Source: Pseudovirgaria hyperparasitica (taxonomy: Eukaryota). From it: a DNA stretch of 64,000 nt. This document shows, in pieces, positions 6,803 through 57,032 of the stretch. A program made the translations under genes and the position numbers. The stretch lies in assembly GCA_010093815.1 (NCBI GenBank), contig ML996584.1; one strand, written 5' to 3'. How positions within the stretch are numbered: position 1 is the stretch's first letter; each line of letters opens with the position of its first letter. The notes under the pieces are model-generated. The model was not told the DNA's origin and ran no database searches. It worked only from the letters and a program-made list of their open reading frames with translations.

Positions 6803-8117
6803 ATGGTTCAATATCTTAGCAAGGCCGTAGCGGCTATCGCTTTTCTTCCCTTTGCTGCGCACGCTCAGACATTCAGCGCTTGCAACCCGACCAAAAGTAC
6901 GGGATGCCCTGCTAATCCAGCTATCGAGACGAATTTTGAGTCCGACTTCAGGACTGGAGCGTCAGCTCTAAGCGGATGGACAATCACTTCTGGCTCCTTG
7001 ACCTATGCGAACGATGGAGCGGCCTTAACCATCAACAAACAAAAGGATGCCCCGACCGTCGCGACCAATGGATATTTGCTTTTTGGGCGGGTTGAAGTCA
7101 GGACCAAGGCTGCTATGGGTACGGGGATCATTAGTAGCATCGTTTTGCAGTCTGAGGACCTCGACGAGGTCGATTGGGAGTTTCGCGGAACTTTCGACAA
7201 CCAAGTCCAAACTAACTACTTTGGCAAGGGTGTAAGTTGGATTCAGCTCTGTAGAAACTGCTCTCGTTCTGACGTTTTAGAATACGACATCGTACGATAG
7301 AGGACAAACACACTCCGTATCAGCACCATTCACAAAGGCCCACACGTATATCGTGGATTGGACTTCTCAGAGGATCAACTTCTACATTGATGACGGCAAT
7401 ACCCCTATCCGCACGATCAATTATGCTGATGCCGTGGGTGGAAGAAATTACCCCCAAACACCCATGAATGTTCGAATTGGTATATGGGCTGGAGGCGATC
7501 CAGACAATGAGCCTGGCGTCATCCAGTGGGCAGGTGGTAAGACAGACTATACTCGGGCTCCCTTCACCCAGATTCTCGAATACGTCAAGATAACCAACTA
7601 TTCCCCGGGCAAGGAATATGTGTGGAAAGACCAATCCGGGTCCTACCAGAGCATCCAGGTCGTTCCCGGCACAGCAAACACTAAAGATCGCGCCGCGCCA
7701 AGGAGAGCTACATTTGCAAGCGAAGATACGGCGGCTGTCGATAACTCTATTGCTGCAAGAGGTGAATCCGATGCAATGAGAGGTCAACAGTATGCTGGCG
7801 CTGGAGAGTTCTATCCGACTGCTGTGGATTCCACCTCATGCACAACAACAACTTTGGTCGTCACCGTCACAGACAGTAGTGAGCCGACCGTGATTTACCC
7901 TAGCATGACAGCCTCGGCAATGCCATCGTCTCTCATGATGGACACTGCATCTCCCGACACGTTCCAACCCATATCGTCAATCCCGATTGCGAAACCAAGT
8001 GGACGGCCGACACCAGCCACTCCGTCTCCAGTTTCATTCACTGGCGCTGCTGCTGCACCGACGGCAATGGGCGGCGCTGTCCTAATGGCTGGTGCTATTG
8101 GTGCTTTATTGTTGTGA
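6803..8117 (+). CDS. CRH1: GH16 Crh-family chitin-glucan transglycosylase, GPI-anchored
   Basis: Signal peptide (MVQYLSKAVAAIAFLPFAAHA), CNP...CP, catalytic DLDEVDWE. Intron 7232-7280 joins NYFGKG-NTTSYDRG. Also YPQTPM...GIWAGGD, WAGG, an S/T-rich stalk and a hydrophobic C-terminal GPI signal. Confidence 0.92.
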
Positions 8118-8686
8118 AAAGCTGTACAGGAATACAATGTTGCCAAACCTTGTTAACCAGGTATAATTTATGTACCTGGAGTTTTCCACAGATGTTGAGA
8201 TGCACAAATCAAATATTCATGTACATACTTGTTCACTCGATCCAGCATCCAGACTTTTATACCGATATTTTCATTCTACGACCCTCAATTTGTGCCCTTT
8301 GCGGTCGCTCTCGCCACTCCGCTTTCGGCAGTCGGCGAAGCTCAATCATACAACAGTCTGCACTCCGCCGTTTATGTCGCCGATGTAGGAACTGACAGAA
8401 AACTGAGTGAACTCTTTGCAAATCAATGATATTAACACTTTATATGTCTTGTTAAGAGATTTAGACCGGTCTAAACACTTCAGACAGGTACATGCTCCTG
8501 AAGGTTTGTGAGCTCACGGTTACACCTAATTTGTTGAGTTGACAGGGACACCAACAGTTCACTTATCTCCATCTTGCCCGCAGTATCCCTCTCGCATCTG
8601 TCCAGATCCATCCGTGGGTACAAACTTCGATTTACCACCTCTTAAACGCGACGCCAGAGAGCGAACTGCGGTTTCTCGTTGGCACC

Positions 8687-9247
8687 ATGTCCGCCTTGAC
8701 GCCTGCGTCTTCGACACACCTGCTGTCCAGCACTGACACCAAAGAAAGTTCACCATCGCTGCTCAGGATCGTTGTTGTCGGTTCGCCGGTCATTATCACT
8801 CTGGCTCGCAGGACGTCCTTCCAATCTAGCTCCACCAGCGCCTCGAGCGTTGTCAGTGAAACAAGGCTTTCGCATCTCTACAACGATATGGGCGCCGACA
8901 GTACCCTGATCATAGCGAACATTGATTCGCAAGCTATAACACCCTCAAGCCTACCTGCTGTAGCTGCTCCGTCATCTTCGCTTCAAGGCCACTTGTTTGC
9001 CGACGTTCAGTTGACCTCAACACAACTCAACCCCGTCACGACATCCAGTTTAACCGGAACGTCTCTGCCCACGAGCACAGATAATGGAGACAAACCACTA
9101 CTTGAAGACACCCTCAGCGCATCACGCTTTACCGCGGTTTCGATTGCAGCAATATTTGCAGGCCTCGCGCTCGTTGGTGCGTTGCTCGCATACATGTACT
9201 TCCGGAGAGGCGTGAAGAAGAGGAGGGGTTCGGCAGGGATGAAGTGA
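8687..9247 (+). CDS. Hypothetical S/T-rich single-pass membrane protein (Mid2/Wsc-like topology)
   Basis: 186-aa ORF with an S/T-rich region, a hydrophobic helix (AVSIAAIFAGLALVGALLAYMYF) and a basic stop-transfer (RRGVKKRR). No clear signal peptide; start uncertain. Confidence 0.5.
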   Translation: MSALTPASSTHLLSSTDTKESSPSLLRIVVVGSPVIITLARRTSFQSSSTSASSVVSETRLSHLYNDMGADSTLIIANIDSQAITPSSLPAVAAPSSSLQGHLFADVQLTSTQLNPVTTSSLTGTSLPTSTDNGDKPLLEDTLSASRFTAVSIAAIFAGLALVGALLAYMYFRRGVKKRRGSAGMK

Positions 9248-9764
9248 GACAGCACATGGTATATGACGATGGTATTTCTTCGTTGGAGGATACTGTGCAC
9301 TCACGGCACGCAAGCCCTGGGGCTTCTTTGATTTGTCACTGAGGGAACTTGTAGTCGTTAGCACTGGGATACCAGGCATGTACGAGGGTCTTTACGAGCA
9401 TGAACATGTCAAGAGGGTTATGCGTAGTACAGATGACGAATGCGATATCAGAAAGGCATTCGTCAGTTGTCACTCATACTGGTTGAAAAATTACTTCAAG
9501 CCACACATAAAGGCAATACGGAAGGTGCCTCTGCATTCACTACCATGAAGATGAGTAATAAGCGTTTGCATGAATGCTCGATCTTCGTCAGAGTGGAAGT
9601 ATAGTCGTTTCTTATCATGATACTAGACCTTTTACGGAAAAGTGTATCCATAACGCGTTGTAAAATTACCTCTCTTGATGCTCTCCCATTCCTGACTTCT
9701 TCACAATTCATCAAAGTCATGTTGTGCCGAATCCCAGCTACTATAGCATTCACGTGAAGGCAAT

Positions 9765-11162
9765 CTAATACAGTCGCATACTCCCAGGAGTTGACCGAAA
9801 GGCTTCCTCGAGGATTGTCAGGCCTTCATCAAGCTGCGACTTGCTGATTACAATTGGCGGTGCAATTCTGAAAACGCCTCCGAAGCTTGCATGGCTGCTC
9901 AAATTCGCCCAGAGTCCTAGTTCATACGCCTTATCAGCAATCGATTTTGCAAGCTCGAGATCAGGCTTCTTTGTCTTTCGATCCCCGACAATCTCTACAC
10001 CCGCCATCAAGCCTCGTCCACGCACGTCTCCGATGCAGCCGTATCGGGTGCTGAGTTTGCGCAGCCCGGCATGAAGCTCCTCTCCAAGCGACTTTGAGTG
10101 CTGTACAAGATTATCACGAAGGACAAGCTCAAGTACCTTGTCGCCTACAGCTGCAGGAAGAGGATCGTTGACATGAGTGGTGTAGAAGCAATAGTCGCGC
10201 TCGACGCAGACGCGTTCAATCTCAGCGCTCGTAATCACTGCGCTCAGGGGCAGACCATTCCCAAGCGTCTTGCTCAATGTCAAAATGTCAGGCACGACGT
10301 CTTCGTACTCGATTGCCATGATGTTGCCGCACCTACCGACACCAGTCTGCGCTTCGTCGACTATCAGGAGCATGCCTTGTTCATCGCAATGTTTTCTGAG
10401 AGCCTTCAGATATCCTTTCGGGAGAACATGCATGCCAGCTGATGACTGGATGCATTCAACGATACATGCAGCCAATGATCCGCAAGACGCTCGATCGATC
10501 AGGCTCCAGCCATAGTTGAGCTCGGTCTCCCAGTCATATGAGCCATCTGTGTTTCGAAATATCGACCTATATGCGTTCGGCGCGGGTAACATGTGCATAC
10601 CAGGCATCAGAGGTCCTTGGCCTTTCCGCCCGTAGTGATACTGTGTTCCCAAAGCTTGTGCAGTCACGCCATGCCAACTAGCACCCAGGCCAACAATTTC
10701 GAACTTGCCGGTGTATACTTTCGCCATCTTGATCGCTGCCTCGTTGCTTTCTCCGCCGGTACTGAGGAAGAATGCTTTGTCCAACCCCGCTGGCAGTATT
10801 GAAGCGAGACGTTCCGCCAAGCTGATTACTGGAGGCGAGACCATCCCGGAAAACAGATGGTCTAAGCCCCGTGCATGGTCATGAATGACTTGGACTATTT
10901 CTGGATTTCCATGGCCGAGGAGACAGGACATCTGTCCAGAGGTCCAGTCAAGAATTCTGTGGCCTTGTGCTGTATAAACGTACATTCCATGACTTCCTGT
11001 GATTACATCTTTCTCAAATTTGGTCCCATAGTTGAGCAGGTACTTCTTCGCCTTGGACTCGAGATCGTCTTGATCGGCATTCTGGTACAGCTGTGGCTCC
11101 TGAGTCTTTCTCACAGAGATTGTTTCGGATGGCCTGATCTCTTCGGAAATAGGTGGCATCAT
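9765..11162 (-). CDS. dgdA: 2,2-dialkylglycine decarboxylase (pyruvate), PLP class-III aminotransferase fold
   Basis: Intronless 465-aa ORF. DGD-type signatures: ILDWTSGQMS..LGH, LSTGGESNEAA, SWHG, SSAG, DEAQTG, PLP lysine TLSKTLG, FYTTHVNDP, WANL, FRIAPP. Confidence 0.88.
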   Translation of the reverse strand: MMPPISEEIRPSETISVRKTQEPQLYQNADQDDLESKAKKYLLNYGTKFEKDVITGSHGMYVYTAQGHRILDWTSGQMSCLLGHGNPEIVQVIHDHARGLDHLFSGMVSPPVISLAERLASILPAGLDKAFFLSTGGESNEAAIKMAKVYTGKFEIVGLGASWHGVTAQALGTQYHYGRKGQGPLMPGMHMLPAPNAYRSIFRNTDGSYDWETELNYGWSLIDRASCGSLAACIVECIQSSAGMHVLPKGYLKALRKHCDEQGMLLIVDEAQTGVGRCGNIMAIEYEDVVPDILTLSKTLGNGLPLSAVITSAEIERVCVERDYCFYTTHVNDPLPAAVGDKVLELVLRDNLVQHSKSLGEELHAGLRKLSTRYGCIGDVRGRGLMAGVEIVGDRKTKKPDLELAKSIADKAYELGLWANLSSHASFGGVFRIAPPIVISKSQLDEGLTILEEAFRSTPGSMRLY

Positions 11163-11319
11163 GAGATAATTGAGAATGGAATGTGTGAGAGGTTGGCCGA
11201 GTGTTTCTGGATTTCACGCATCCAGGAGGTCAATATTGGAGGTCATATTTACGAGAAACACCATCGAAGGTTGCAGTTCTCGTGCCACACACCATTCTGG
11301 TGCCCGGGCTACCTTGTCT

Positions 11320-11518
11320 CCGCGGCAAACTTCCTGCGCGGCCATCTCTGATGAATGAGGACAGGGGATGCAGGTTCAAACCAGCGAGTCATACATTACT
11401 GACAGTCTCCACATTTCCTATAGCTCGTATCTTTGCTTGTCCGCGGAAATCTCACTTTACCGCGGTGCTCCTCGACAATAACAATGGTAAATAACTTTCC
11501 AGTATTACACTCCCGCGG
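11320..11518. promoter_or_regulatory. Four CCGCGG elements in the dgdA/TF divergent promoter (candidate Zn2Cys6 sites)
   Basis: CCGCGG at 11320, 11441, 11460 and 11513 within a 423-bp intergenic region. Confidence 0.55.
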
Positions 11519-11585
11519 CTTTCAAAGACATCTTCAACCGCGCAGAAGTCAAAGTCCTTGAAGTCTGCTTGCAGTCGTAACGATC

Positions 11586-13649
11586 ATGCCTCGCGAGGCC
11601 ACACCTCGACCTTATCGATCGCACCTACGTCCAGCTTGCCTCCCCTGTCGCCGACGAAAGTCGCGATGCAAGACCGATAGTGTTTTGGGACAATGCCTTA
11701 TGTGTCAAGCTCATGGAACTGTGTGTGTATTTCCAGAGGAGTCTGATCATCGTGCTGCAAGAAACAGTGCGCAACGCTCGTCTGCAAAGCCTCAGACAGA
11801 AGATTACGACGGTGCATATGGCGGCATATCTGCTAATTTAATTCCGAGATATCGTGACTCCGATCGACACATGGGACGCGCGACGGCTGATACGTCATCA
11901 GTATCGGTACCTAGTCCTGTACAACAACGGCCGGCGCATACACATGGCAGTCAGCCAGCAGTGCCCACTCTCCTGGACAGTCTTGCTGTTGACGGAGAAC
12001 ATAACCCACACATCGTCGGGCCGGTAGTAGTGAATGATAATGACATGTTACAAGAATACCTTTCTACGAGACGGAATGATGGCGCAGGTCCGTCTAGAAT
12101 GATAACAATGGGTAGGACCTTCCAGTATGGAGCTGTGAGACGGCCGGTGATGTTCTCAAATGTCCAGAAGCAGCCTGTGGGACTCACAAGCAACCGTGAT
12201 CCAGCGTTCCTGAAGACTATGGTTATCGAGAAACTTTTAGAGCCATTTGGCCACGAGTTGATTCGAGTGTAGGTCAATCAACTACTCCTCTGCTCCTGCT
12301 ATGCTGATTCGTGAACAGTTATCTACACAAAGCCAACTGCTGTTTGCCTTTATTAGATGAACAGTCACTTTATAGTGCAGACAAGGACATTATCTCGCCG
12401 ACGCTGCTGGCTAGTATTTATGCGAATGCTCTGATCTATTGGCGCCACGACACCCACCTTGCCTCGCATAGATGTCCAGATGTGCGCTTCATATGGAATC
12501 TTGCGAACGAAGCTTTATATATAGAGCTTCAACGGTCGCCCGGAATGTCAACGATCATTTCGATCTTGCTAAACATCAGTGGTAGACCTACGACAGCCGT
12601 GATGGGTAACGCAGTACTTATAGGATCTGCAATCGCACTGTCGTACTCCCTAGGTCTCAACCGCGATCCTGGAGCATGGGAGATTTCGGCGACGGAGAAG
12701 AACGTGAGACGACAAATCTGGTGGGCTATTGTGATTTTCGACTGCTGGTAAGCCTGCAGAGCCTGACGCCAACGCGTTCTGACAGATTCTCGATAGGAGC
12801 AGTATGTCTTATGGTACTCCTCCACAGGTACAACGTCATCAACATGACGTCTGTGTCCCTGATATGAATGACATGCTTGCCAGTGATGCTACACCGAGAG
12901 GAGCAGCTGGTGCCCCTATCTATATAGCATTCATCGGTCTCACAAAGATCCTGAGTATTCTTCTCGATCATGTGTATCGTATCGAATCTTCCGGTAGTAC
13001 ACGCAATGAAATTGGGCCATGTGAAGTTTCCCTCAATACGAATCTATACGAGTGGGAGGAAGGACTGACAGAGAACATACGTCGCATCATCATACGTGGC
13101 GCACATCTTGACCAACCGGGCGCTGCAAACTTCAGGCTCGCGTACTTATCAGTCAAGCTTCTTCTACATCGCATAGAGCTAGGACTTGACCCGCAAGAGA
13201 CGTCGTCAGACACGCGGCCCAGTCACCAATACGCCCAGGCCCAGAGAGTCGCCGAGGAGATTGTTATGCTCGTGCAAGAGCTAGGTGTGGAGCAGCTGGG
13301 CGACTTCTGGCTATCAGTCAGCGCGTTCTCGCTCACTTCTGCCATGAGTTTCCTTGTGCGACGAACGTTGGAGTCTCGACGAGAGTATAATGCAGATCTG
13401 AACCAGATAGGTGCTTTCAAGTTGGCGAAGCAGTTTATTGCCATTCTGAGATCTCATCGTCAACAGCATGCGTGGGATGTTGGTGACTTGTGTCTGTCTC
13501 AGTATAGTGAAGTCATTGAGAGTCTGGAACAGGGGGACCTTGATTCGGGTCCATCGCTGTCGAATATTGAGGACTTTGTTCCCGATGTCAACGTCGATCA
13601 GCTGTTTCCGAGTCTATGGGACATGTTTGAGGCAGAAGGTGCGTTGTAA
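11586..13649 (+). CDS. Zn(II)2Cys6 transcription factor with fungal-specific middle homology region
   Basis: ACLPCRRRKSRCKTDSVLGQCLMCQAHGTVC zinc cluster. MHR motifs SLGLNRDP..W and RRQIWWAIVIFDCW-SSMSYGTPP. Introns at ~12269-12318 and ~12747-12796. Confidence 0.92.
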
Positions 13650-13715
13650 TTGGAGTTGTCTCAATGATTTAGGATACTTTGTTTCGTCCGGGGTCAGTAT
13701 CTTGGTACAGACGTC

Positions 13716-15125
13716 CTACTCTTCCAGATACAATCCTTCTTCTGGCGGTGGTATTCCGTACCATCCCATTTCTTCTTTGTCTTCTGGGTCTGGGTCATCC
13801 ATCTGGTAGTATCCGTCATATCGCCACCACTTACGATCCTCCCACACGTCTTCGACAGGAAGGACACCGTCCTGCCTCATCAAGTCCTTCACGTTCTCTA
13901 CGCCACGCCAGACTCGCAGAATATTCTCTCCTGCTAGCTTGCCAAGCTGCTCTTCCGTAGCCCCTCGGTCAAGTATGGCTTTGAGTAGCCCGGGATAGCA
14001 CCGCACATCTTCCAAGCCCTTGATCACACTTGCAATTCCATCAAAGTCCGAGCCGAGGCCTACATGGTCCCAACCAATCCTCTCAGCAATGTAGAAGAGG
14101 TGATCAATCACCATGTCCATCGTCGCATCTGCCCGTCGCGTGGCAACATGCTCCGGGACAAACGTCACCATCACTATTCCCCCATTTTGCGGCACTTGAT
14201 CGAGGATGTGATCCGGGAGGTTCCGTGCGCAGTCAAAGACACCTTTGGCATTGCTGTGCGAGAACATCACAGGCGCCCTCGTCAGCTTCAAGACTTGCAC
14301 TGCACAATCCTCGGATACATGCGACAGGTCGATGATCATGCCGATCCTGTTCATTTCGACAATGGCGGCCCGGCCCAGCTTCGACAATCCGCCGTGCACG
14401 GGTCCAGTCTTCGATGTCGAGCTGTCTGCGAACGCGTTGTTGCAGACATGCGTCAGCGTGCACTGCGGTCTCGTAAGCTTCTCTTCGCTTTGATGGTTAT
14501 GATGACGATTGGGAATCATGCACTGACATAGCGGACACCAAGCATGTAGAAAGCCATGATGATGCCTATGCTGTTACCGGCCATGTGGAGGCTGGTCCAT
14601 CAGCTGTGGAAGAATGCAACAGATGAGACAACTCACCCCTCAATCCCAATAGAGCACGCAATCCTACCCCCTGCATACACCTTTTTGACCTCATCTGGCC
14701 CCTTGACCAACTCGAAAGTGTCGGGATACGAATCTACCAGGCGCAGCACCAGATCTACCTGCTCAATCGCATCACGTGCCATATCGCTGTACTCCGGCGT
14801 CGAGAAGTCCTCCGCCGAACGCAAGCATGGCACACATATGGACCAGAACTGTCCTCCCACGGCGCCTATCATCAGTCACTTAGTCGACTACATCTTCTGC
14901 AGATGGATGGGAATGAGCACCTTCGCGGAGACGCGGTATATCTGTCATTCCCCTCTCGAAGCCCTTGTTCAGGTCGAATTTTGGATTGTCGTGGATCTTG
15001 CCGTGGAAGGCTGCTCGGGGCTGCTGCGGGAGGTCGTTGTGTCCGTCTATCAGGGGGGTTTTGCTGAGGACGCGCTTCACGCGCTCGTCGATGTCTAGTT
15101 GCTGGTACGGGTGGATGGATGCCAT
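13716..15125 (-). CDS. Membrane-dipeptidase family (peptidase M19) metallo-dipeptidase, apparently cytosolic
   Basis: Motifs PLIDGHNDL, TDIPRLREG-AVGGQFWS, GIEG-LH, LGVRY-CTLTH, IDLSH, FSHS, RNLPD, VGLGSDFDG. Three introns. No N-terminal signal or TM segment. Confidence 0.92.
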
Positions 15126-15284
15126 CGTTGTAGATGGTGATAGTATGGAGTTTGGTGTGTGTGTGTTCTTTTCATGGGCCGTTATGTTGCATGATATTTA
15201 ATACTCACACTACATGCTAGCTCTTGCGGAGTGCGTCCCGATATCGTCCCTGGTATCGGATCCATTTTCGGGATGTATACGGGG

Positions 15285-15435
15285 CCGCGGCCCGCTTTTG
15301 GACGGCACAGCATAGATTGATAAGAGTATCGCGAGTCCTCCACTTTCGTACTGGAGTATGGCAAGGGAGCTTCACAGATAAGCGCTATCGGATGACCACG
15401 ACTCGAGTATCCCTTGTTTCGATGGCCGCGGTAAA
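15285..15435. promoter_or_regulatory. Dipeptidase/permease divergent promoter: two CCGCGG elements plus GATAAG sites
   Basis: CCGCGG at 15285 and 15426 (CCGCGGTAAA). TGATAAG at 15318, AGATAAG at 15376, and inverted CTATC at 15385. Confidence 0.5.
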
Positions 15436-15601
15436 CTCTACACTCCTGGCCACGAGAACCCATGAGGATCTCAATGCTGTGGATAGTGATCAAACAGATA
15501 CATTAATATCATGAGAGACCAGGCGGTATATAGATTGCGTCCACTATCCACCGATCGCTCCAACGAATTGACTCCCTCCACCCACCATTTCTATCTCTAA
15601 C

Positions 15602-17304
15602 ATGGACTCCGAGAAGCAAGCCCAGTACGCCGAAGACGAAATCGAATCAAAAGCGCTGCATTTCCTCCACAAAGCAGAAGCCAGCCATGTTTCCGACGCC
15701 GTCTCTGAACGTAGCCGTCTCCAGCGGAAGATCGACATGCGACTGATGCCACTCCTCTGCCTGACATACGCCATCCAGTCCATTGACAAGACAACCCTAA
15801 GCTATGCCGCCGTGTTCGGCATACGCGAGGACACCCACCTGCAGGGCACAGAGTACTCGTGGGCCGGCGCTCTATTCTACCTGGGCTACCTGTTCTGGGA
15901 GTATCCGACGAATGTGCTGCTCCAGAAGCTGCCCGTCGGAAAATTCATGTCTGGCACTGTACGTACCGAACCACATGGAGATGCAGAAGACCATGGGGCT
16001 GATCAGGCATATAGGTCATTCTCTGGGGCATCACACTCATGCTCCATACCCCTGTGCAGAGCTTTGCCGGACTGGCGGCTGTGCGCACCTTGCTTGGAGT
16101 CTTCGAGGCGTCGGTGAACCCGGCTACGATGATCATCTTCTCCATGTACTACAAGCGCCAGGAGCAGCCCGTGCGGATGGGCATCTGGATCGGCTCGGCT
16201 GGTGTGGGGTATGTCGTCGCGGGCATCACGAGCTTCGGCATTGGCCACATCGATTCGTCCAGCCTGGAGAGCTGGCGATTGCAGTTTCTCGTCTGGGGTG
16301 CGGTTACTACGGCTTGGGGCGTCTTGCTTTGGCTTTTGCTCCCTGGATCGCCGGTCTCGGCTGGGTTTTTGAGTGAGGAGGAGAAGGTGCTGGTGATGGA
16401 TCGGATCAAGGATAATGGGACGGGGGTGGAGAATAGGAGGTTCAAGGTTGTGCAGTTTAGGGAGGCGATGCTGGACTTGAAGACATGGTTACTGTTCATC
16501 TTTGCCGTGTCCAGCAATTGCCCGAACGGAGGGTTGACAACGGTACGTATACGACTGGTACCGTATGAGACCTCCCAACTAACCACGCCACGACAGTTCC
16601 AAGGCCTCATCATCAAAGGCTTTGGCTTCACAACACTACAAACAACCCTGATCCAAATGCCCTCAGGAGGCATCCAAGCAATAGTCTGCGTAACAGCCTG
16701 GTAAGCAAGCACAGCCCCACGCATCCCAACTTCTAACCCATCCCAACTTCTAACCCATCCCAGCTACATCGTGTCAAAATACAAAAACGCACGCCTCGCA
16801 ATGATGCTAATCTGCCTAACCCCTTTCCTCGCCGGCATCACGGGCCTCGTCGCCATCGCCGACAGCAAGCGCTACGCCCGCCTCGTCTGTCTCTGGATCT
16901 CCTTCTCGTACACCGCAACATGGACACTCTCCATGTCCGTCGCCACGGCAAACACGTCCGGGCACACCAAGCGCGTGACGACGAATGCGATGCTCCTGAT
17001 CGGGTATTGTGTCGGGAATTTCGTGGGGCCGTTCTTCTTCAAGACGAGCGAGGCGCCGTCGTATGGGCTTGGGGTTGGGATGATGTTTGTCTGCATTGCG
17101 GTGCAGGTCTTGTGTATTGTGGGGATCTGGGTGTTGCTGTGGTGGAGGAACAGGATGAAGGAGAGGCCGGTGTCCGGGGAGGAGTGGAGGAGGGCGCGGG
17201 AGAATGGGTTTGCGGACTTGACGGACTTGCAGAATGGGTATTTCCGGGTGAGCATTCTCCTGCTTGGAGTGAATCCTACTGACTGGCAGCAGTATGTCTA
17301 CTGA
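15602..17304 (+). CDS. MFS anion:cation symporter, Dal5/allantoate-dipeptide permease family
   Basis: RKIDMRLMPLL, IDKTTLSYAAVFG, YSW...FYLGYL..EYP, RTLLGVFEA, YKRQEQP.R, WRLQFL, PNGGL, ANTSGHTKR, GNFVGP, C-terminal DLTDLQN..FR-YVY. Four introns. Confidence 0.92.
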
Positions 17305-17634
17305 TGGTCCTGTCGATCCTGGAGGTAATTATGTACACCGGGAACCGTGGCATGTAATAAAGCGACATGAGCCGTGCGTGAGACCACGAGGTATAGTCGC
17401 CTGCACAATGTCTGCCCGATGTTCACTCGTTGTTGTCAGGCCCTGTTTTCACCATGAGCAGCAAGCAACGTCAACAAACACCATCTCGCGACGCGTCTGG
17501 CCACACTCCATCCATGCACGAATTCTTCCACTCGAAAACACCTCGAAACCCTCTACAAACCCACCATCAACTACAACAACAAACCTACCCATCCGACCAG
17601 TCACACAATCATCCACCTGCCCGCCCAACCAACC

Positions 17635-18246
17635 ATGTCCGCCCTCAAATTCAAACTCCTCTGCGGCACCCCAACCGACGAAGAAACCTCCACCTCCACC
17701 TCCACCTACTTACCACCAAGCCCCCATACACCAGCAAACCCACCCACTACAACCGCCCCAACCCTAACGCTCACACCCACAAACCCACCCCGAAAACAAA
17801 CCAACCCACCCCAAAGCAAAAACCACACCTTCAACCTCCACTCCGCCCGCGCCCCCTGCATCGCCTACTGGACATCCACATGCCCGTCCACCACCACCTC
17901 AAACCCACAATCACAACCCACGCCCTGCCCCTACAGCCACACCCGCTACCCGCCCTACTTCAACAACAAACCGCACGAGCGCCGCGCCGCCGTCCTCCGA
18001 AACACCCAAAACACCCAAAACTCCAACCTCACCGCCACCCACACCCACAACAAAACGGAAAAACAGGGCGTGGCAGCAGTCGGACAAGGGCAAGGCGAAC
18101 AAGTGAGAATAGGGCAGCTTCTCGAAGCCCGTGAGCGGGAGATTGAGTTGCTGAGGAGGAGGTTGCGCGAGGAGGAGAGGTTGGTGCGGGATTTGACGGG
18201 GTATTTGAGGGTTACTTGGGGGTTTTTGGAGAGGTTGAGGCGGTGA
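17635..18246 (+). CDS. Hypothetical low-complexity protein with a CCCH-like motif and a C-terminal coiled coil
   Basis: 203-aa ORF, P/T-rich. Contains CIAYWTSTC-x14-CPYSH and a heptad-like LLEAREREIELLRRRLREEERLVRDL. It could be spurious because of compositional skew. Confidence 0.35.
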   Translation: MSALKFKLLCGTPTDEETSTSTSTYLPPSPHTPANPPTTTAPTLTLTPTNPPRKQTNPPQSKNHTFNLHSARAPCIAYWTSTCPSTTTSNPQSQPTPCPYSHTRYPPYFNNKPHERRAAVLRNTQNTQNSNLTATHTHNKTEKQGVAAVGQGQGEQVRIGQLLEAREREIELLRRRLREEERLVRDLTGYLRVTWGFLERLRR

Positions 18247-18595
18247 TTTGGGTTACGGGGGGGATTAGGGGGAGGGATAGGGGAAGGGGGTGAGGGGAGA
18301 GGGGAAAGGGGAGGGGATTAGGGATTAGGGAAGAGGGGGGTGAAAAGGGGGAACGAGAAGGGGGAATGACAAGGAGGAAAAGGGGGAAAGAGAGAATGCA
18401 TGTTGTGTACGTCTGTATATGTGTCTGAGTGTATGTATGGTATACGCGGACGCGAGGAATGAATACTCCTCCGACCCATCCACATCCACTCCCAGTATAT
18501 ACCCCTGGCACGTGAAAAGAACCGCTCTACTCCCATGAATCTAATAACAAGAATCCATGATATCTTGCCCTTCTAGGACCAAGAATGCTAGTATT

Positions 18596-18632
18596 AAGAA
18601 TATCAAGAATATCAAGAATATCAAGAATATCA
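18596..18632. repeat. (AAGAATATC)n minisatellite at the left edge of the gap
   Basis: Four 9-bp units run into the N block. Confidence 0.85.
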
Positions 18633-19432
18633 NNNNNNNNNNNNNNNNNNNNNNNNNNNNNNNNNNNNNNNNNNNNNNNNNNNNNNNNNNNNNNNNNNNN
18701 NNNNNNNNNNNNNNNNNNNNNNNNNNNNNNNNNNNNNNNNNNNNNNNNNNNNNNNNNNNNNNNNNNNNNNNNNNNNNNNNNNNNNNNNNNNNNNNNNNNN
18801 NNNNNNNNNNNNNNNNNNNNNNNNNNNNNNNNNNNNNNNNNNNNNNNNNNNNNNNNNNNNNNNNNNNNNNNNNNNNNNNNNNNNNNNNNNNNNNNNNNNN
18901 NNNNNNNNNNNNNNNNNNNNNNNNNNNNNNNNNNNNNNNNNNNNNNNNNNNNNNNNNNNNNNNNNNNNNNNNNNNNNNNNNNNNNNNNNNNNNNNNNNNN
19001 NNNNNNNNNNNNNNNNNNNNNNNNNNNNNNNNNNNNNNNNNNNNNNNNNNNNNNNNNNNNNNNNNNNNNNNNNNNNNNNNNNNNNNNNNNNNNNNNNNNN
19101 NNNNNNNNNNNNNNNNNNNNNNNNNNNNNNNNNNNNNNNNNNNNNNNNNNNNNNNNNNNNNNNNNNNNNNNNNNNNNNNNNNNNNNNNNNNNNNNNNNNN
19201 NNNNNNNNNNNNNNNNNNNNNNNNNNNNNNNNNNNNNNNNNNNNNNNNNNNNNNNNNNNNNNNNNNNNNNNNNNNNNNNNNNNNNNNNNNNNNNNNNNNN
19301 NNNNNNNNNNNNNNNNNNNNNNNNNNNNNNNNNNNNNNNNNNNNNNNNNNNNNNNNNNNNNNNNNNNNNNNNNNNNNNNNNNNNNNNNNNNNNNNNNNNN
19401 NNNNNNNNNNNNNNNNNNNNNNNNNNNNNNNN
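18633..19432. other. Assembly gap (800 N)
   Basis: Run of n characters. Confidence 1.
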
Positions 19433-19526
19433 ACATACATACATACATACATACATACATACATACATACATACATACATACATACATACATACATACAT
19501 ACATACATACATACATACATACATAC
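19433..19526. repeat. (ACAT)n microsatellite at the right edge of the gap
   Basis: About 23 perfect tetranucleotide units. Confidence 0.95.
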
Positions 19527-20047
19527 ACACCCATACCACCACCATCCAATTAGACTCACAAGTAAGTCCCACCTTGACGGCGCACAACCTACCCCTTGAA
19601 TCCTGAAACATCATGGACATATCACATGCACAATCTCACGTCACACACTCCTCCTCTCACTCACGACACAAGTCACCCACCGTTTTCTCACGACACACTC
19701 ACATCCCAAGAATCAAACATCATGCAAAGGCATATAATCATTAACAATTACCGCCATCCACACAGCCGCAATGCATAAACTGTATACATGAAAGAACGGA
19801 CGTGTCGGCTATACCTCAACCCATACCCATGCCTGTGCACACGCACACACACCCACACTGGGACCGGTATGCCACGCGCCGCCAACATCATCATCGTCGT
19901 CAAGGAGGAGTAAACCAGACCCGCGTCATTAAACAAAGTCATCATAACCCTCGTCCGTTCGAGAAGAGATCCCATGTACCGTTTCCCCTTCGTCATGCCA
20001 GCATGCCTATGCACCACCATTCACAGTTCTACCCGTGAAAAGGGTAC

Positions 20048-42900: not shown

Positions 42901-45900
42901 CCGTCTAGGTTAAGGGTGTCGCGGCAGTGGGGCACTGCTCGCGCTCGCATTCTGATTGTAACTCTGGGCCCCACAGTTATATACATCGTGCCTCTACGAA
43001 CGTCTGTATTGCATAATACGACAATTCGTATGCCAAGTCCATCTGGGACATGCCCAGTCTGTCAAGACTCAAGAGACACCTCCGCTACGCCGCTGTGTCA
43101 ATATTGCAAAATACTACGATACCATGACCCTTCGATGGAAGTCTGATCCACGATAGTGGGAACGATGTGTCTCGAGTTCGTGACTGAACTACAACCTGTT
43201 CATGTAATTAATAGCGGCTACGAAACCAGGACCAGGGTTACGGCAATTGGGCATCTGTACATGCTGCCCTCGATCGACAACAACGAGCATAGGATCATGG
43301 ACGTGGACCTGGTTAACTCCATTAGTCCTCGCCATGCTTATGCCTGTCGGACGACGCAAAATGGCATGGAGGATTGTTTATTCATTCTGACAATTAGACA
43401 ATTGCCACTCGGGCTTCTCCGCATATGAACGATGGCCTTCTCCAACTTTTGATCCGTTTGTCCATAGTTACATGGGAAAGCTTGGCGCCCGATGCACGTC
43501 TATGCCACCAACACGCGTTTTTATATATAATTAATATTTTACGGCATCGTCGACAAATACTTATATACCTATTAAAATATCTATTATATATTAGTATTAT
43601 ATGATATTAGCTATATATTAGTATTTTTTTAACTATTTTACGCTATCTATTATACCTCCTAAGTAGCGTAAAGGTATTTAATTCGGATAGAATAACTCAA
43701 TAGAACCTCTACTACTACCTCCTAGGCTACGGCTACGTATATCTATATTAAAGGCGCTCTAGTATAGTATAGATAAGGTATTAAGGGCTACGAAGATAGT
43801 AGTAAGGCGTAAAAATATACCGCTAGCGCCCTCTAACGTACTCTTATCGAGCGATCCTCTAGCCTTACTAGGCGATATATCTAATAATACTAATAACTCT
43901 ACTTTAGTTCATAGAGATATAGTTAAGGAGGAGGAGAAGAAGGACCTATAGAATAATAACGCGGCTCTTAATAAGATAATATAGTCTATCTATATAAATT
44001 AGTAACTTAGAGTAGATAGTTTTAGAAAGATTATTAAGGCTATATCGCTAAAGATAGAAGCCCGGTATAAGTTTAAGAAGGAGTTATATAAGAAGGAGAT
44101 TTAGTAGTTAATTAATAAGGCTCTCGGTACTAATAACTAGCTATTTAAGACTTAAGGCTTTACTATAAAGCTCGGAATATCTAGTCGTGCTAGGAAATAG
44201 TTAATACTTCTAGACTAGAGTCTAGATAACTAGAATAAGCTTCTTACCTTCCTTAATAAGATCTATAGTCTAGTAAGAAAGGATCTACTAGAGGCTATAT
44301 TTCTTACCTTTAAGGATACTATTATCTATAAGTCTTATTAGCTACTAGAACGTAAGAAGGCTATAGTATCTAATCCGAAGTCTCCTACGCTATTACTACT
44401 TATTAGTATAGTTTCTACTAGTCTAGTATTATCGCCTATAGATCCGAATCTTAAGGGACGCTTAAAATAGCTATTTAAATTATAGGAGAAGCGAAGATAG
44501 CGAGGCCGTAACTAAGGAGTTATTATTAATAATATTTAGAGTAAGCTCTAGTATAGTAAGGCGATATATATAAACTACTAAGGTTAGTACTATAAGATTA
44601 TATTACCTAATAGAATACTCTACTATAAGGTGGATAAGACTATCTTAGAGCTATAGGCTAATAATATTATTAATAGTATTTAAGGCGTAACTAAGGATAA
44701 GCTATTAATAGACTTATTCTATAAGATTATCGCTCGACCGTGCCTAAGGAAGTCTTAAACTAGTAGTAGAACTAGTATCTCGTTAACCGCCGTTAACGGA
44801 AGTACTACTTCTATACTTAAGCGCCTTAAAATAAAGAGATTACGACGTAAGGAGGCTAAGTTAGATTATAAGAAGCGGAATACGAGGCTTTAAGATAAGT
44901 AGATAAGATAGATAATAATTAAGCGTAAGGAGACGGTGGCGAGACGTCGTTAAGATAATAAAGATAAGCTTACGTATACTTAACTACTTTATTAGATGGA
45001 ATTATAGTATTACGGGTTTAATTCTATAATACCTATATAGATATCTACGTTTCCTTAACCTTAACCTTAACCTCGCCCTCTATCTACTTATAGTTTAAAT
45101 TATTCGCTAACTCGTAAGACTCGTTATAAAATACCCCCTTAGACACGAGTTATAGAAACCTTTAGTAGTCTAGTATAACTAGGGCGTTACTAGGCGGATA
45201 TAGTACTATTAGCTCTTAAATAGCGTAAGAAGATAGAGACTCACGATAAGACGAGGGCTAGGATACACGAATTAAGACTATATATAGATAATAACTACTA
45301 TACTTACTACTATATTAAGGAGATAACTCGGCCTAGAACTACTTATTATAAAGCCGCGAAGATAGTAGGTATTCTACTTAGTATTCTACTAGATACACGT
45401 CTATACCTTCGTAAGTATAAGGAGTAACTTAAGGTAAGCGAGGCGGCGTCCTCGCTCTAGGCGTTTACTATAACTAGTATAACTAGTATTTAGATAGGGA
45501 TGGTATAGTATTTCTTAGAGTATATTTAGGAGTATATATTTATATATTAAGGCTATATGTATAAGAATAGGGTTATTGGATAGTAGTATAGTTAGATAGA
45601 ATAATAGGGTGTATTCTATTATAGAACGAATTACTACCAAACCCTTTTAGTAGGAATCCGAGAGTATATATATAAAGGGACGCTAATCTATCTAGTACGT
45701 AACTATTTACCGCCCTTCACGTTACCTTCTAACCCTATTAGCTAAGGTATATATAGGTCGGGTTCTAACTAAGGCTAAGTCCTAATAATTATCCCTTCCC
45801 TCTAGGAAGCTACCCTTAGCGACCTAGATTATTATCTATCTCTATATCCCTATCCTAAGTCTCGTAAGACCTTAGTTATTCTCTACGCTTTATCTTAGAT

Positions 45901-48900
45901 ACTTACTAATATTTGCTAATCTAAGATTTATATAAGCGTTTTCCTAATAAACTAGATTTTATCTATCTTAACTTCTTATATAGGTAAGATTATCTAATTA
46001 GGCCTAGCGTATCACGTAATATAATTAGATAAGCCCGGGTACTACCTATATTAAAATCTTTTCTTAGAAATATTCCTTTCTTTAAAAAACTTCTTAACTC
46101 TTTATAGAGTTTTTTAGATTATTAGATATATTACCTAATCCTTATAGATATAGATTTATATAGATTTACTATAATTTAGTACGATTTACATAATTTACTA
46201 ATTTTCGTACCATCCTTAGCTAGTAATAATATAATTCGTAATAATCCGTATAAATTAATAATAATTATAATATAGTTTCTCGAAATCTTAACGCTCTAAA
46301 GTAATTAGTATAGAAATAGGCGCCTTTAAATAATCCCTATCTTATATACGTTACCGATATATCGAAAGCTATTAATCTACTCTAACCTAGGCCGGGCTCT
46401 AATAATCTAGCTATATATTATTATAGTTATCGCTTTCTATCGTATATTACTTATAGTAGTACTAAATCTATAATATACGGTACTTATATAACTAAGAAGC
46501 GTTATTATTTATAGGTATTTAAGTAAGTTCGAAGAACTTTATATAGATTTACTTATATTAGTATAGATTACTACTAGGCCTCTAGTAACCCCTACTAATA
46601 AGGAGCGTAGTACTACCGATTATAATGCCTTAGAGAAGGCTTTCTACGAGCTATATATCTAAGGTAAGGGTTACGTCTAGAAGTATAATTCTAATAAGAT
46701 CCGTAAGGATTTATCGGAATCTACTATAGCTATTATTACCGCGATTACTAGGTAATATCGTTTTTCTTAAATTATTATAGATTCTTACTAATATATATTA
46801 ATCTCTATAATAGTACTAAAATCTCTACCACTTTGGACTTCTTTCTATATACCGGCGATATTAAAATTCCTAGAAAAGGTTCTAGTAAAAAGGCTAAGGT
46901 TCCTTCCTTACGCGTGCTAAAGAGCTATAAAATTAGGGAAGATAGCTCTAATCTAGAAGTTTCTATACTAAAGTTATATAGTTCTATACTAATTATTAAA
47001 TCTTTTCGCTAATTTATATAATTCTTAGCGTGCCCGCGCCGGTCTATCTCTCTCTATCCTAGGTTCTATCGCTCCGTAGGTTTCTATAGAGGAGTTTATA
47101 GCTATAAGGTGCGCTATATAGAATTTATAGTGTCGGAACGAAAGGCTAGAGACTTATATTATAAAGCTCTATACTATACTAAATAAGAACTAGCGGAAGG
47201 AATTAGATATAACCATCGCGGTAATTAGTACTTCTACTCCTACTCTAACTTAATCGGTTTAGATCTATACTAATTAGTACTAATATGTCTCTTTTATCTA
47301 GCGTTTTTGGTTTTTTAGTTTTAATTTTAAAGCGATCTTACTTCTTCTAGATAGATTAGTACGAGTTTATATAGATCTATATAGATCTTTATATTTTCTT
47401 TTAGCTTTCTTAATTTTATCTTTCTTTAATAATAACTTCTTTAATCTCTTTAGTAATCTATACCGATCTATACTAATCGGCACCGATTTTCGATGTCTAT
47501 TTCTCTTAGTGAATTATTTTTCTAAGTCTCTTTTTTAGTTAAATTTTTTAAAGTTCTAAGTTCGAACTTTCTAAGGAAGTTCCTTAATTCCTTAGAATAT
47601 TTTAAAGATCTATATCTCTTTTACCTTCTTCCTTTTAGGCGGCCGTTCTTAGCGCCGAACTATACTAAAAAACGTTAAATTACCGTACTTTAGTATAATT
47701 CTCTACAATTCCACGGCTTCCTTTACTAATCGCTACTTATATACTAATATCGCTACTTTGCTAATATTTATTATAGGTTCCTAAGTATCTTCGTTAGAAT
47801 TATATTCTTTCTAACGAATTTTATATAGCCACGTACTATCTTTAGCGCGTTACTAGCTAAGTATCTACTTAACTTCGTAGATATCTATACCTTCTTACGT
47901 AACTACTTTATGTAGTATCTATTCGGAATAATCCGGTAATAATAAGATATAAAATGGCTCGAGAAGCGTAATATAGAATATATTATATATCTTTAACGTA
48001 GGAGGGAGTTATAACTCGTACACCTAGTTATTAATTACACAAGTAATCTTATATAGACCTATTATTATATAGTTAAGCTTCTTCTTTAGCCTAATACTAC
48101 GAATATTCTTACTATTTAGTAAAACTTTATCCCTAATATTAAAGATTATAGGTTTTCTACCCTTATTATAGTGCGATTTACTATAATTCGTAGTATCTTA
48201 TAGTAACTTTATAACACTTCTTTACGTTTAGAATAGTTCTATAGTAATTTCTATTACTTTAACGTTAGGTTATTCTACTTTAAACTAAGTCCCTAAGAAC
48301 TACGTATTATGGTTCCGACCGAAGTTTACTTTAAACGGACTTACGTAGGTTAATATATATCGGCTGTTATTATACGCGAATTCCGCGATATAGACTAACC
48401 TTACCTAGTTATTCTACTTAAAGTTATAATATACGCGTAAATACGCCTCGACTATCTAATTCTACTACTCTATCTACCTATCTATTTATAGGTAGAACGT
48501 AGTACTAAGTTTCCGCTTAATTCCTAGCGTATAGTAGAAATCCTTCTAAAATTTAGATGTTATCTACGGACCTCTATCCGAAACTATACCGTTTAGTATA
48601 CTATAGAGCCGGACTACGTCACGGAGTAGTATATCTATAAGATCTAGTACTTAGATCGTCTTCCTTATAGAGATATAGTATAATATCTTTATAAATCTAT
48701 CTAGAACTACGAGTAAACTATTATAAATATACCTAGAATACTTACTTAGGGGTAGATCTATAATAAAATCTATTAATAATTCCTTCTATGCCTCCTTTAG
48801 TATAGGTAATAGCCTTAATTCACTATATGGTAAGTATCTATATACTTTTATATACTAGTAAACGTTATACGTTTTTACGTAGTCTTTTATATATTTATAA

Positions 48901-49281
48901 AGACCTAACTAGTCGTACATCCTTCGGATTAAATTAACCGTTCTTATAATACTAAAGTACCCTACTAACGTGTAATCATGCTATTCCCTTAAAATATTAA
49001 TTTATAAGCCGCCTTCCGGCACGTAGAGTCGGCCTTAGAAGTAGATCGCGTCCAATTATCATTCCTACCTTAATAACTACAGCGGATCTATAGCGCTTCC
49101 TTTTATACTTATAACTTTCTTTACTAATATATCGGAATTCTAGGTAGATTTAATTAAGTCTTTAAGGTTTTTCTTAGTTTCTTAGACGTTTATTTAGATT
49201 ACTTAATACCCGCTCTAATTCCCGCGGAGAATCGCCGAAAGTGTCCTAGCTTCTAGCATTCTATTAGATAACTAGTCTTAT

Positions 49282-49483
49282 TATTATAGACTTTGGCTTT
49301 GCCTTGTCTCTAGCATTACATAACGGAGCCGGGACGGATAGAGACTAGTATAGGGGTATCACGTGACCTCGCTTAAGACTATACTTAAAGCTATAACCAT
49401 ACGGCTTATCCCTATTCTCTCTAAGTTAAATTATAATATATCTTAGTTACCATTATAGTAACACCTTGGTTATATCTATTATA
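49282..49483 (+). repeat. 5' LTR of inner Gypsy element
   Basis: 202-bp direct repeat of 56831-57032 with 9 mismatches, all transitions. Termini TA...TA (RIPed TG...CA). Confidence 0.95.
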
Positions 49484-54739: not shown

Positions 54740-56250
54740 TCTAGTCCTCCCCTAGGCCGTCTCCTAATAACGGCGGCGGCTATTAATCTAGGTGGGTGGC
54801 GAGGGCGAGTCGTACTCGTCCGTAGGAGGGTTATAGCGGGGGCGGGCCGGCGACCGATAGCGGCGCGACGCTTAATAATCCTTACGGGAATAGTACCGAT
54901 GGCCACCCGAGTAACGGCGACGGTCGTGCGACCGGTCCCGATAGTTATATAACCGGTCACGACGGCGGGGAGACCGATTACGGCGGGTAGGGGACCGGCT
55001 ACGACGCTCGTAGGACCGGGAGCGGTCACGGTAGCGAGGAGGGGTCCGGGGCTAACGATAAGGCGGTGAGGACTTATAAGGAGGGGCGGCGATAGGGAGC
55101 CGGGGGGGCCTAATAGGGCGATAGCGAGAGCTCCGAGTCGGCGACTCCCTATAGCCTACGGGCCGGGGTCGGCGTAAGCGGCTACTACCTAATAAGGGCT
55201 CCTTATCCTCTATAACTACCTAAGTAATAAGACGGCGAGATGGTGGCTCCGCTAGGCGGGCCAACCCGGACGCGACTTACTATATAGTGCCCTACGTCAC
55301 GCGTTAGAATAGGTATTTAGGCTTATAAAGCTTATATACCTATAAGGTGCCGACACTAGTGCATAGCTCATCTATCTAGGCCTCGTTATAGGATACGTAC
55401 TAATTCATCTAGTAAATCACGCTGCTAATCTAGCTACGGTTACTACTACCGCGATACGGCGGCTTAAACGATGTTATAGCGCCACGATAAGGTATTACGG
55501 GAGCCTAACTAATGATACTAGCGTTACGTCGCGTGACGTAGGTAATCTCTAAGTTAGACTTATAGTCCTTATATAGGTGGTAGAACTTAGAGTTTATATG
55601 CGGCCACTTACCGGACGAAGGCTTTATCGGGTCTAGGCCGCGACTACCATAATCCGTTATATAGCTAAAGTTATTATTAACCGACTCGTGCATAAACTTT
55701 TTAAGACGACTCTACGCCTTACGCAAGGCCGGGTATATAGCGAGCTCCTTAGTATTCTATAAGTAGGTCCCCTTCGACGTATAGTACTTTATATAGTTAG
55801 TACCGCGGCTAGGCTTATAGCTACGCTCTAAGATTAGTAGGCGCCGCCACGGCGTAGAGACGGCACATACCTAAGCACCCTAGTTTTCTCTAGGGCCTTT
55901 ATATATATGCGACATGCGAAGTACACGGACTTAGTATACTCGTCTTCTAACGAGTTACCCTCTATAATATATAGCCCTATACGGCAAATAGGCTTAGCCT
56001 ATCGGGGTGCGGTAGGAGGAATAGTCTATCTAGTTAGTATAAGGAACGGTATAGGGATAGGACCCACTCACGGTACGATCGGCTGGTTCCTAGCGCCTAG
56101 GCGCGCGACGATCGTTAGGGTCTTAACCTCTAGCACCTATAGCTACCGCCGAGACGGCGCCGGTTTCTATAATAGGACTATTTAGGCCTAGAGCGCTTAT
56201 AATAATGGTATAGAAGCTGCGAGGTAGTATACGAGTTTACTAATATCATA
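54740..56250 (-). pseudogene. RIP-damaged antisense cargo gene in the inner retrotransposon (Zn2Cys6-like motif + RS-rich tail)
   Basis: Two canonical introns (56071-56026 GTGAGT..CTAAC..TAG; 55870-55821 GTATGT..CTAAT..TAG). The spliced frame runs through ORF 55693-55505 into an RSRS/RDR-rich segment. Ends are approximate. Confidence 0.7.
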
Positions 56251-56830
56251 GTAGCTACTACGTAGTATTAAGATAGTAGGCGTAAGGGTAGTTAAGGAAG
56301 AAGAAAGTCGCTAGGCGTGGGACCTATATACTCGCGTTAGGGAAAATCGTGTGGGCCGGGGTAGAGCCGGTCCTAAAATGGACGATAATAATAATAAACG
56401 CGGGTCGTGCGCAAGCTACCCCACTACTACTATATAACCCCTAGCCCGGTAAGTAGCCGGTCCTAAAACGGATAATAATAAAATAGGACGCGCGGTTCGT
56501 GCGTAGGCTACCCTACCTTCATATAACCCGACGTAGCACGCCGTAATACGAGGAGTCTACCTCCGCCACGTAACCGCCACGATATAACTATAGGATTCTA
56601 CCATCTTACAATTACATGACCTACGACGCCATGATATAAGGAACCAACCTCCGCCACGTAACTACTAGGACGCTACTATAAAAAGCTACTACCTTACTAG
56701 AAGGAATATATAGCCCTACGGTTATTATATAGTACGATATAAAGACCGTAAACCTAAGACCTAACCGAGCCGGTTATTATTATATAAAACACTAAGCCGG
56801 TCCCTAGGACAATCCTAGAGAATAAGGGTA

Positions 56831-57032
56831 TATTATAGACTTCGGCTTTACCTTATCTCTAGTATTATATAACGGAGCCGGGACGGATAGAGACTAGTAT
56901 AGGGGTATCACGTGACCTCGCTTAAGACTATACTTAAAGCTATAACCATACGGCTTATCCCTATTCTCTCTAAGTTAAATTATAATATATCTTGGTTACC
57001 ATTGTAGTAACACCTTGGTTATATCCATTACA
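56831..57032 (+). repeat. 3' LTR of inner Gypsy element
   Basis: Direct repeat of 49282-49483. Ends in ...ATTACA followed by the TSD CTTAT. Confidence 0.95.

Follow-up and report, generated by a model that had tools for sequence, protein, structure and literature searches.

A dialkylglycine decarboxylase-regulator pair beside a dipeptidase-permease pair in Pseudovirgaria hyperparasitica, a candidate route for salvage of 2-aminoisobutyrate and isovaline dipeptides

A stretch of 64,000 nucleotides from contig ML996584.1 of the rust hyperparasite Pseudovirgaria hyperparasitica (assembly GCA_010093815.1; the window, hereafter) carries at positions 9765-17304 four intact genes in two divergent pairs. 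One pair encodes a 2,2-dialkylglycine decarboxylase (DGD) and a Zn2Cys6 transcription factor, and the other an M19 (renal-type) dipeptidase and an MFS permease. We found that this unit consists of two separately conserved two-gene modules lying side by side, not of one indivisible four-gene cluster. The first module is an already published kind of pair for the catabolism of 2-aminoisobutyrate (Aib), and the second recurs by itself across several classes of fungi. The modules are linked again in three Xylariomycetidae, and their two promoters share an enriched hexamer, CCGCGG. This recurrent linkage and the shared element incline us, by a narrow balance, to the view that the two modules are functionally coupled. 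That they work in series, importing dipeptides that end in Aib or isovaline (Xaa-Aib or Xaa-Iva), hydrolysing them and decarboxylating the released residue, is a plausible extension to which we would give somewhat less than an even chance.

Results

DGD and the adjoining Zn2Cys6 factor

Exon borders were placed by eye, assembled into four products and compared with database proteins. All four models were letter-identical to P. hyperparasitica proteins (P0001, P0386, P0121 and P0241); the source annotation of the dipeptidase (P0121) and the permease (P0241) names this species and a contig of 821,821 bases. The identical proteins and the family matches described below confirmed the four genes, coordinates and orientations that an initial annotation of the window had proposed, and its gene identities were right.

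The DGD gene (9765-11162, minus strand; P0001) is a single exon encoding 465 amino acids, with its stop codon at 9765-9767. Its product matched the Aminotran_3 profile with 275 bits and the DGD of Burkholderia cepacia (1d7r, 1dgd and 1dka) with 480 bits, against 205 bits for the runner-up family, alpha-amino-epsilon-caprolactam racemase. Residues are numbered as in the literature, which the chain numbers in the printed 1d7r alignment match. According to one report, the residues of the DGD active-site subsites are Q52, W138, M141, S215, K272 and R406, and the yeast enzyme has Met at position 141 (PMC10169451). Five of these six are identical in the window DGD: Q52, W138, S215, K272 (the pyridoxal phosphate lysine) and R406, which are kept in 120 of the 120 relatives listed. 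Position 141 is Val here, in contrast to yeast, and in 103 of the 120 fungal relatives listed. N394 and Y301 are also conserved, as is the stretch YTTHVNDP, in which T, H and D are invariant in all 120 relatives listed. We take T303, H304, V305 and D307 to be the alkali-metal site near the active site. The margin in bits and the retained signature residues make a strong sequence-based case that the aminotransferase of the window is a dialkylglycine decarboxylase.

Upstream, across a divergent promoter at 11163-11585, lies the gene of the Zn2Cys6 factor (11586-13649, plus strand; P0386), with exons at 11586-12268, 12319-12747 and 12797-13649 and a product of 654 amino acids that contains Zn_clus and Fungal_trans domains (Pfam). 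The conservation of this arrangement was examined in metagenomes. A scan with the DGD protein gave 80 loci, 15 of them fungal-like (62-77% identity, about 10 distinct) and 65 bacterial-like (50-56% identity), and their flanks were examined by tblastn with the four window proteins and by Pfam. A homologous Zn2Cys6 gene adjoins DGD in six of the 10 distinct fungal loci (L004, L006, L007, L008/9, L013 and L014/15). One of them, L007, has at 7300-16830, all on one strand, a Zn2Cys6 gene, DGD, a different ACS-family MFS gene (TIGR00893, 155 bits) and an amino-acid permease gene. Here transporters adjoin the DGD pair in a second arrangement, and no peptidase gene is present.

A functional study of DGD1 in a Dothideomycete, Mycosphaerella graminicola, was reportedly made by Adachi et al. 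in 2003. A Saccharomyces cluster consists of DGD1, the Zn2Cys6 gene DGD2 and a gene for an uncharacterised amino-acid permease (Tapia et al. 2023, PMC10169451). In that report, growth on Aib and the formation of acetone depend on DGD1, and Aib-dependent induction of DGD1 depends on DGD2; isovaline is also used via the DGD system, Aib and isovaline are the characterised physiological substrates of DGD, and peptaibols are suggested as a natural source of Aib (PMC10169451). The requirement for DGD2 is consistent with the dedicated regulator that the initial annotation had claimed. Because of the yeast work and the M. graminicola study, the DGD-Zn2Cys6 half of the unit is of a known, already published kind. 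Strong homology to these characterised systems makes a strong case that the pair in the window would also serve Aib catabolism.

The window resembles the subtelomeric DGD1-DGD2(-AAP) cluster of Saccharomyces and Zygosaccharomyces in having DGD, an adjoining Zn2Cys6 gene and a transporter gene, and the yeast DGD orthologue is about 52% identical to DgdA of B. cepacia, the enzyme that the window DGD matches with 480 bits. Aib and isovaline serve as nitrogen sources through the yeast cluster. No peptidase belongs to the yeast cluster, whose transporter is an amino-acid permease (PMC10169451), whereas the window has an ACS/Dal5-type MFS permease and an M19 dipeptidase.

The M19 dipeptidase and the MFS permease

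The dipeptidase gene (13716-15125, minus strand; P0121) has exons at 14921-15125, 14637-14865, 14528-14591 and 13716-14462 and encodes 414 amino acids. Its stop codon (13716-13718) faces that of the factor gene, which ends at 13649, and the spacer between them (13650-13715) is 66 bp, the distance that had been reported before. The product matched Peptidase_M19 (PF01244) over profile positions 3-318 of 319 with 337 bits (cut-off 26), and its alignments with GliJ of the gliotoxin cluster (5lwz, 296 bits) and human DPEP1 (1itq, 259 bits) run from end to end. GHND, GIEG, DLSH, FSHS and GSDFDG align with the same motifs of GliJ; PDB variants of GliJ deviate at the Asp of HND and the Asp of SDF. The two zinc ions of M19 enzymes are presumably bound by an HxD motif, a bridging Glu, two His and an Asp, and these metal-ligand motifs and the full-length M19 fold are common to the window enzyme, GliJ and DPEP1. 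The protein starts 10 residues ahead of the GliJ alignment and ends in an acidic tail. By inspection, with no signal-peptide predictor run, the model has no hydrophobic N- or C-terminal stretch that could be a signal peptide or an anchor. The window dipeptidase is thus predicted to be a soluble, cytosolic form like GliJ, unlike mammalian DPEP1 with its signal peptide and glycosylphosphatidylinositol anchoring. GliJ, too, is clustered with genes of its pathway; in contrast to GliJ, the window dipeptidase has no non-ribosomal peptide synthetase (NRPS) context and is a member of another orthologous group, one that is always paired with an ACS-type MFS. M19 enzymes are reported to prefer L-Xaa-D-Xaa dipeptides.

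The permease gene (15602-17304, plus strand; P0241) is separated from the dipeptidase gene by a second divergent promoter (15126-15601). Its five exons (15602-15958, 16015-16542, 16597-16700, 16764-17247 and 17293-17304) encode 494 amino acids. The product matched MFS_1 with 123 bits, and its top NCBIfam match was TIGR00893 (2.A.1.14) with 196 bits over positions 1-393 of 399, below the curated cut-off of 395. This sub-threshold match makes it a candidate member of the ACS group (TC 2.A.1.14) of the yeast permeases Dal5p, Seo1p and Yct1p. A Protein Atlas look-up of the permease gave generic MFS names only; its orthologues are labelled allantoate permease or ACS family by their sources. One study describes yeast members of the Dal5 family as carriers of small anionic nitrogen or sulfur compounds, including dipeptide-like anions such as gamma-Glu-Met in the case of Seo1p (PMC7617739).

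We found that the dipeptidase and permease genes are a separately conserved pair, neighbours by locus tag in at least six further fungi. The two genes carry neighbouring locus tags in Neocucurbitaria cava (N0V83_006698/99), Neocucurbitaria sp. VM-36, Capronia coronata (A1O1_00642/41), Zasmidium cellare and Elasticomyces elasticus; in Cirrosporium the tags differ by two. In ten more species the two genes lie on contigs of equal size (Phaeomoniella, Periconia, Niveomyces, Halenospora, Cadophora, Pseudocercospora fuligena and four Aspergillus). The pair spans Dothideomycetes, Eurotiomycetes, Sordariomycetes and Leotiomycetes. Two Colletotrichum models, P0296 and P0369, join M19 and MFS in one protein (895 amino acids with PF01244 and PF07690, and 1024 amino acids); these fusions are probably annotation merges of neighbouring genes.

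Linkage of the two modules

Four of the 11 comparable species, P. hyperparasitica and three Xylariomycetidae, have the modules linked; this tally takes in only species among the best 120 hits of each search, a non-random sample with small denominators. In Xylariaceae sp. FL0016 the DGD and M19 genes (KAI1336686 and KAI1336687) are consecutive, and in Xylariomycetidae sp. FL2044 the MFS and DGD genes (KAH9907076 and KAH9907080) lie on one contig. All three sequenced strains of Neoarthrinium moseri carry DGD, M19, one further gene and MFS (JN550_002930/31/33; likewise JX265 and JX266), so that the order is DGD-factor-M19-MFS in the window versus DGD-M19-?-MFS in N. moseri.

A quick tree of the DGDs placed Pseudovirgaria with Xylona and Chaetothyriales, split (SH-aLRT 98) from all Sordariomycete DGDs, and made the linked N. 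moseri the sister (99) of the unlinked Xylariales sp. PMI_506. The relevant nodes of the M19 tree had no resolution. A recent transfer of the whole cluster between Pseudovirgaria and the Xylariomycetidae was considered; the DGD tree argues against it, and the M19 tree does not settle the matter. Because gene order differs and the DGDs are split, a single recent transfer fails to explain the linkage. It therefore arose at least twice, or else is ancient and was frequently lost, and pure chance is difficult to reconcile with either course of events. By our rough estimate, two given genes fall within four genes of one another in about 0.1% of genomes of about 10,000 genes.

Three further records were noted in this comparison. 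In Pleurostoma richardsiae, a close factor homologue (P0403) and the MFS orthologue (P0245) are on contigs of the same size (407,281), which hints at a factor-MFS link. The equal contig size of 7466 for a DGD (P0033) and the M19 of Fusarium beomiforme (P0163) was set aside as uninformative, the two coming from different sources. A partial DGD labelled Aureobasidium melanogenum (P0028) had zero tree distance to that of Exophiala dermatitidis (P0017), and the record may be a contaminant or mislabelled.

A hexamer shared by the two promoters

CCGCGG occurs 13 times in the 64-kb window, which equals the whole-window expectation. Six of the 13 copies fall within the 899 bp of the two divergent promoters, four between DGD and the factor (at 11320, 11441, 11460 and 11513) and two between M19 and MFS (at 15285 and 15426). 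Among 2108 strand-collapsed hexamers, CCGCGG ranked first for joint enrichment (binomial P 1.2e-8, about 2.6e-5 after correction). Furthermore, the 10-mers CCGCGGTAAA and GATGGCCGCG are common to both promoters, and the sequence GATGGCCGCGGTAAA at 15421-15435 merges two 10-mers of the DGD promoter and contains the CCGCGG at 15426. These results bear out the previous remark that both promoters share motifs. They suggest shared control of the two promoters, and fit, without proving, a reading of both by the resident Zn2Cys6 factor through CCGCGG as its putative site.

Among the metagenome loci, the closest factor homologue (44% identity) is that of L007, and a double CCGCGG is present there 150-158 bp upstream of DGD. 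The hexamer was not found upstream of DGD in L001, L002, L004, L006, L008, L010 and L014, and the single copy in L013 falls just within the coding sequence. A role of CCGCGG as the conserved DGD-promoter site of the family was rejected, since it is upstream in L007 only.

Transcript-like contigs

All four genes are covered by contigs of one sample, from two runs of unrecorded kind in one study. We took these contigs as transcript assemblies because of their precise GT..AG intron removals; such contigs can hide rarer spliced forms and carry no strand information. DGD is covered without joints by an mRNA-sized, intronless contig of 1723 nt (9496-11218). Both introns of the factor gene, in both runs, and all four introns of the permease gene were removed at the modelled GT..AG borders.

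Discussion

The findings above can be arranged into one pathway. The Dal5/ACS-type permease would import a small anionic peptide-like compound, for example an Xaa-Aib or Xaa-Iva dipeptide from peptaibol breakdown; this cargo is proposed because of what DGD and M19 enzymes do. The cytosolic, binuclear-zinc dipeptidase would split the imported dipeptide, and DGD would decarboxylate the released Aib or isovaline to a ketone and CO2 with transfer of the amino group to pyruvate, a step that would detoxify the dialkyl amino acid and recover its nitrogen. The divergent Zn2Cys6 factor would be the pathway-specific activator, as in yeast DGD1/DGD2, and would probably read CCGCGG in both promoters. The modules would have been brought or kept together in P. 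hyperparasitica and at least three Xylariomycetidae. In its most specific form the proposal is a dedicated salvage and detoxification pathway for Aib and isovaline dipeptides, in which the permease would take up Xaa-Aib pieces of peptaibols that resist proteases, the M19 enzyme would be the first known Aib-dipeptidase and one DGD2-like factor would act via CCGCGG. The cluster would have come together, or been kept, independently in a rust hyperparasite and in those Xylariomycetidae that encounter producers of peptaibols. We put this form forward tentatively, as possible rather than probable.

Several observations weigh against coupling of the modules and favour instead the main rival to the full pathway, namely that the two pairs are neighbours without coupling. 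On that account the M19-MFS pair would be a general-purpose module whose cargo is a different small peptide (Cys-Gly or L-Xaa-D-Xaa, for example), and the pairs would be regulated separately. The modules are unlinked in seven of the 11 comparable species. DGD is on a different contig from M19 and MFS in Capronia coronata, Exophiala aquamarina, Stachybotrys elegans, Xylariales sp. PMI_506 and Neonectria ditissima; the modules are likely unlinked, with less certainty because of clusters with several members, in Penicillium nucicola and Ilyonectria destructans. By tblastn, none of the 80 metagenomic DGD loci, the 10 distinct fungal ones among them, contained an M19 gene; for seven of the distinct fungal loci this search covered 10 kb upstream and 3.3-10 kb downstream. 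The M19-MFS pair, conserved alone in the four classes named above, is unlinked from DGD in most of the fungi examined, and its function therefore needs no adjacent DGD. The N. moseri gene between M19 and MFS was not matched to the factor, the ten best of the 150 listed factor homologues being from other species. The closest factor homologues come mostly from species with the MFS orthologue on a contig of its own (Fusarium zealandicum, Colletotrichum zoysiae and Fusarium sp. Ph1). In five other fungal loci with a more distant factor homologue, the DGD promoters are without CCGCGG. Finally, in the contigs that cover DGD and the spliced factor and permease genes, the M19 gene is covered only unspliced, with the introns at 14463-14527, 14592-14636 and 14866-14920 retained. 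The contigs over M19 continue through the M19/MFS promoter, and one also holds spliced plus-strand genes, so the coverage of 13716-15601 resembles RNA read through from the plus strand, or antisense RNA, more than M19 mRNA; the contig evidence shows neither co-expression nor silence of M19. Set against the uncoupled reading are the linkage itself, for which chance would give the estimated 0.1% but which was seen in two classes, in different order and with no shared recent origin of DGD, and the rank of CCGCGG as the top jointly enriched hexamer of both promoters. We regard independent neighbours as an appreciable possibility that falls short of being probable.

If the modules are coupled, the cargo could be another one, such as D-alanine from L-Xaa-D-Ala or another alpha,alpha-disubstituted amino acid, or the MFS permease could import free Aib with the dipeptidase on a side branch. 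The reported preference of M19 enzymes for L-Xaa-D-Xaa dipeptides, the L007 locus, where DGD and the factor adjoin a different ACS-family MFS and an amino-acid permease, and the amino-acid permease gene of the yeast cluster (PMC10169451) are in line with such variants. The dialkyl-pocket residues of the window DGD are conserved, however, the characterised substrates are those given above, and nothing favours a particular alternative cargo; we hold these variants to be unlikely. A biosynthetic or self-protective role in a secondary-metabolite pathway, like that of GliJ in gliotoxin synthesis, was suggested by GliJ being the closest solved structure to the dipeptidase. We rejected it as very improbable: a Pfam scan of the flanks (stop-to-stop open reading frames of at least 140 amino acids outside 9700-17400) detected no gene for an NRPS, polyketide synthase, P450, methyltransferase or glutathione S-transferase, the M19-MFS pair recurs widely with no such genes named among its hits, and DGD is catabolic in every characterised case (PMC10169451). 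The statement of the initial annotation that the window holds no NRPS was borne out by the same scan. Functional coupling of the two modules remains the reading to which we narrowly lean.

The initial annotation had treated the four genes as one cluster. Linkage in three Xylariomycetidae supports this in part, but the unit proved to be two pairs, given the seven species with unlinked modules and the 80 DGD loci without M19. Lack of linkage in other genomes, which had been named as evidence against the cluster, was accordingly found in most of the species compared and not in those Xylariomycetidae. That no description of the cluster was known holds for the four-gene form only, since the Aib-catabolic core of DGD and a Zn2Cys6 factor is published (PMC10169451). 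Full-text literature searches returned no description of the four-gene form, with the proviso that the synteny figure S6 in the supplement of PMC10169451 could show DGD neighbours in other yeasts, and no paper combining a membrane dipeptidase with an allantoate permease. A genome survey of Trichoderma was the one paper listed that mentions Aib, a dipeptidase and peptaibols together.

Aib-rich peptides, peptaibols among them, are major antibiotics of fungi and agents of biocontrol, and their microbial disposal is little known. Catabolism of free Aib by DGD and its regulator is established; for peptide fragments that contain Aib, our literature searches found neither an enzyme nor a transporter. 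Should the M19-MFS pair feed DGD, a widespread orphan pair of fungal M19 and Dal5-type genes would gain a physiological substrate. In that case the pair would also be a candidate trait for resistance or nutrition in the competition between mycoparasites and other fungi, and would include an enzyme that cleaves sterically hindered alpha,alpha-dialkyl peptide bonds, which would be useful for peptide chemistry. If the pairs are uncoupled, the locus would be an ordinary juxtaposition of a known catabolic pair and a conserved peptide-uptake pair.

Bacterial dgdA loci

The bacterial dgdA-dgdR system of B. cepacia (1d7r, 1dgd and 1dka) has the same enzyme family and active-site residues as the window and likewise a dedicated divergent regulator, which is LysR-type in contrast to the Zn2Cys6 regulator of the window. 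By Pfam, a LysR gene adjoins dgdA, in the manner known for dgdR, in eight of 24 bacterial-like metagenomic loci, and an M19 gene was found in none of the 24. Other peptidase genes adjoin dgdA in five of these loci: S15 X-Pro dipeptidyl peptidases in L043 and L062, S8 peptidases in L025 and L073, and an M20 peptidase in L047. We treat these neighbours as a lead only. In L040 (7565-13607), the DGD of the bacterial-like class (53%) is flanked by a fragment of a TRI12-type efflux pump and a cytochrome P450, and this locus may be eukaryotic rather than bacterial.

Flanking regions of the window

The region is eukaryotic in character, with spliced genes, a GC content near 0.5 and AT-rich blocks further out. 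In the Pfam scan, the neighbours on one side of the unit were Chs5, Mpv17/PMP22, PrpD and GH16, and those on the other side were PIR, a GH35 beta-galactosidase, zf-C2HC5 and Wbp11. AT-rich blocks (GC 0.29-0.38) at 18001-20000, 44001-50000 and 56001-64000 break up the sequence of about 0.5 GC, and the long open frames on both strands at 18530-19635 resemble low-complexity or repeat-degraded DNA. Just 3' of the permease gene, at 17397-18246, overlapping open frames rich in Pro, Thr, His and Gln gave no Pfam match, and one transcript-like contig spans this segment without joints.

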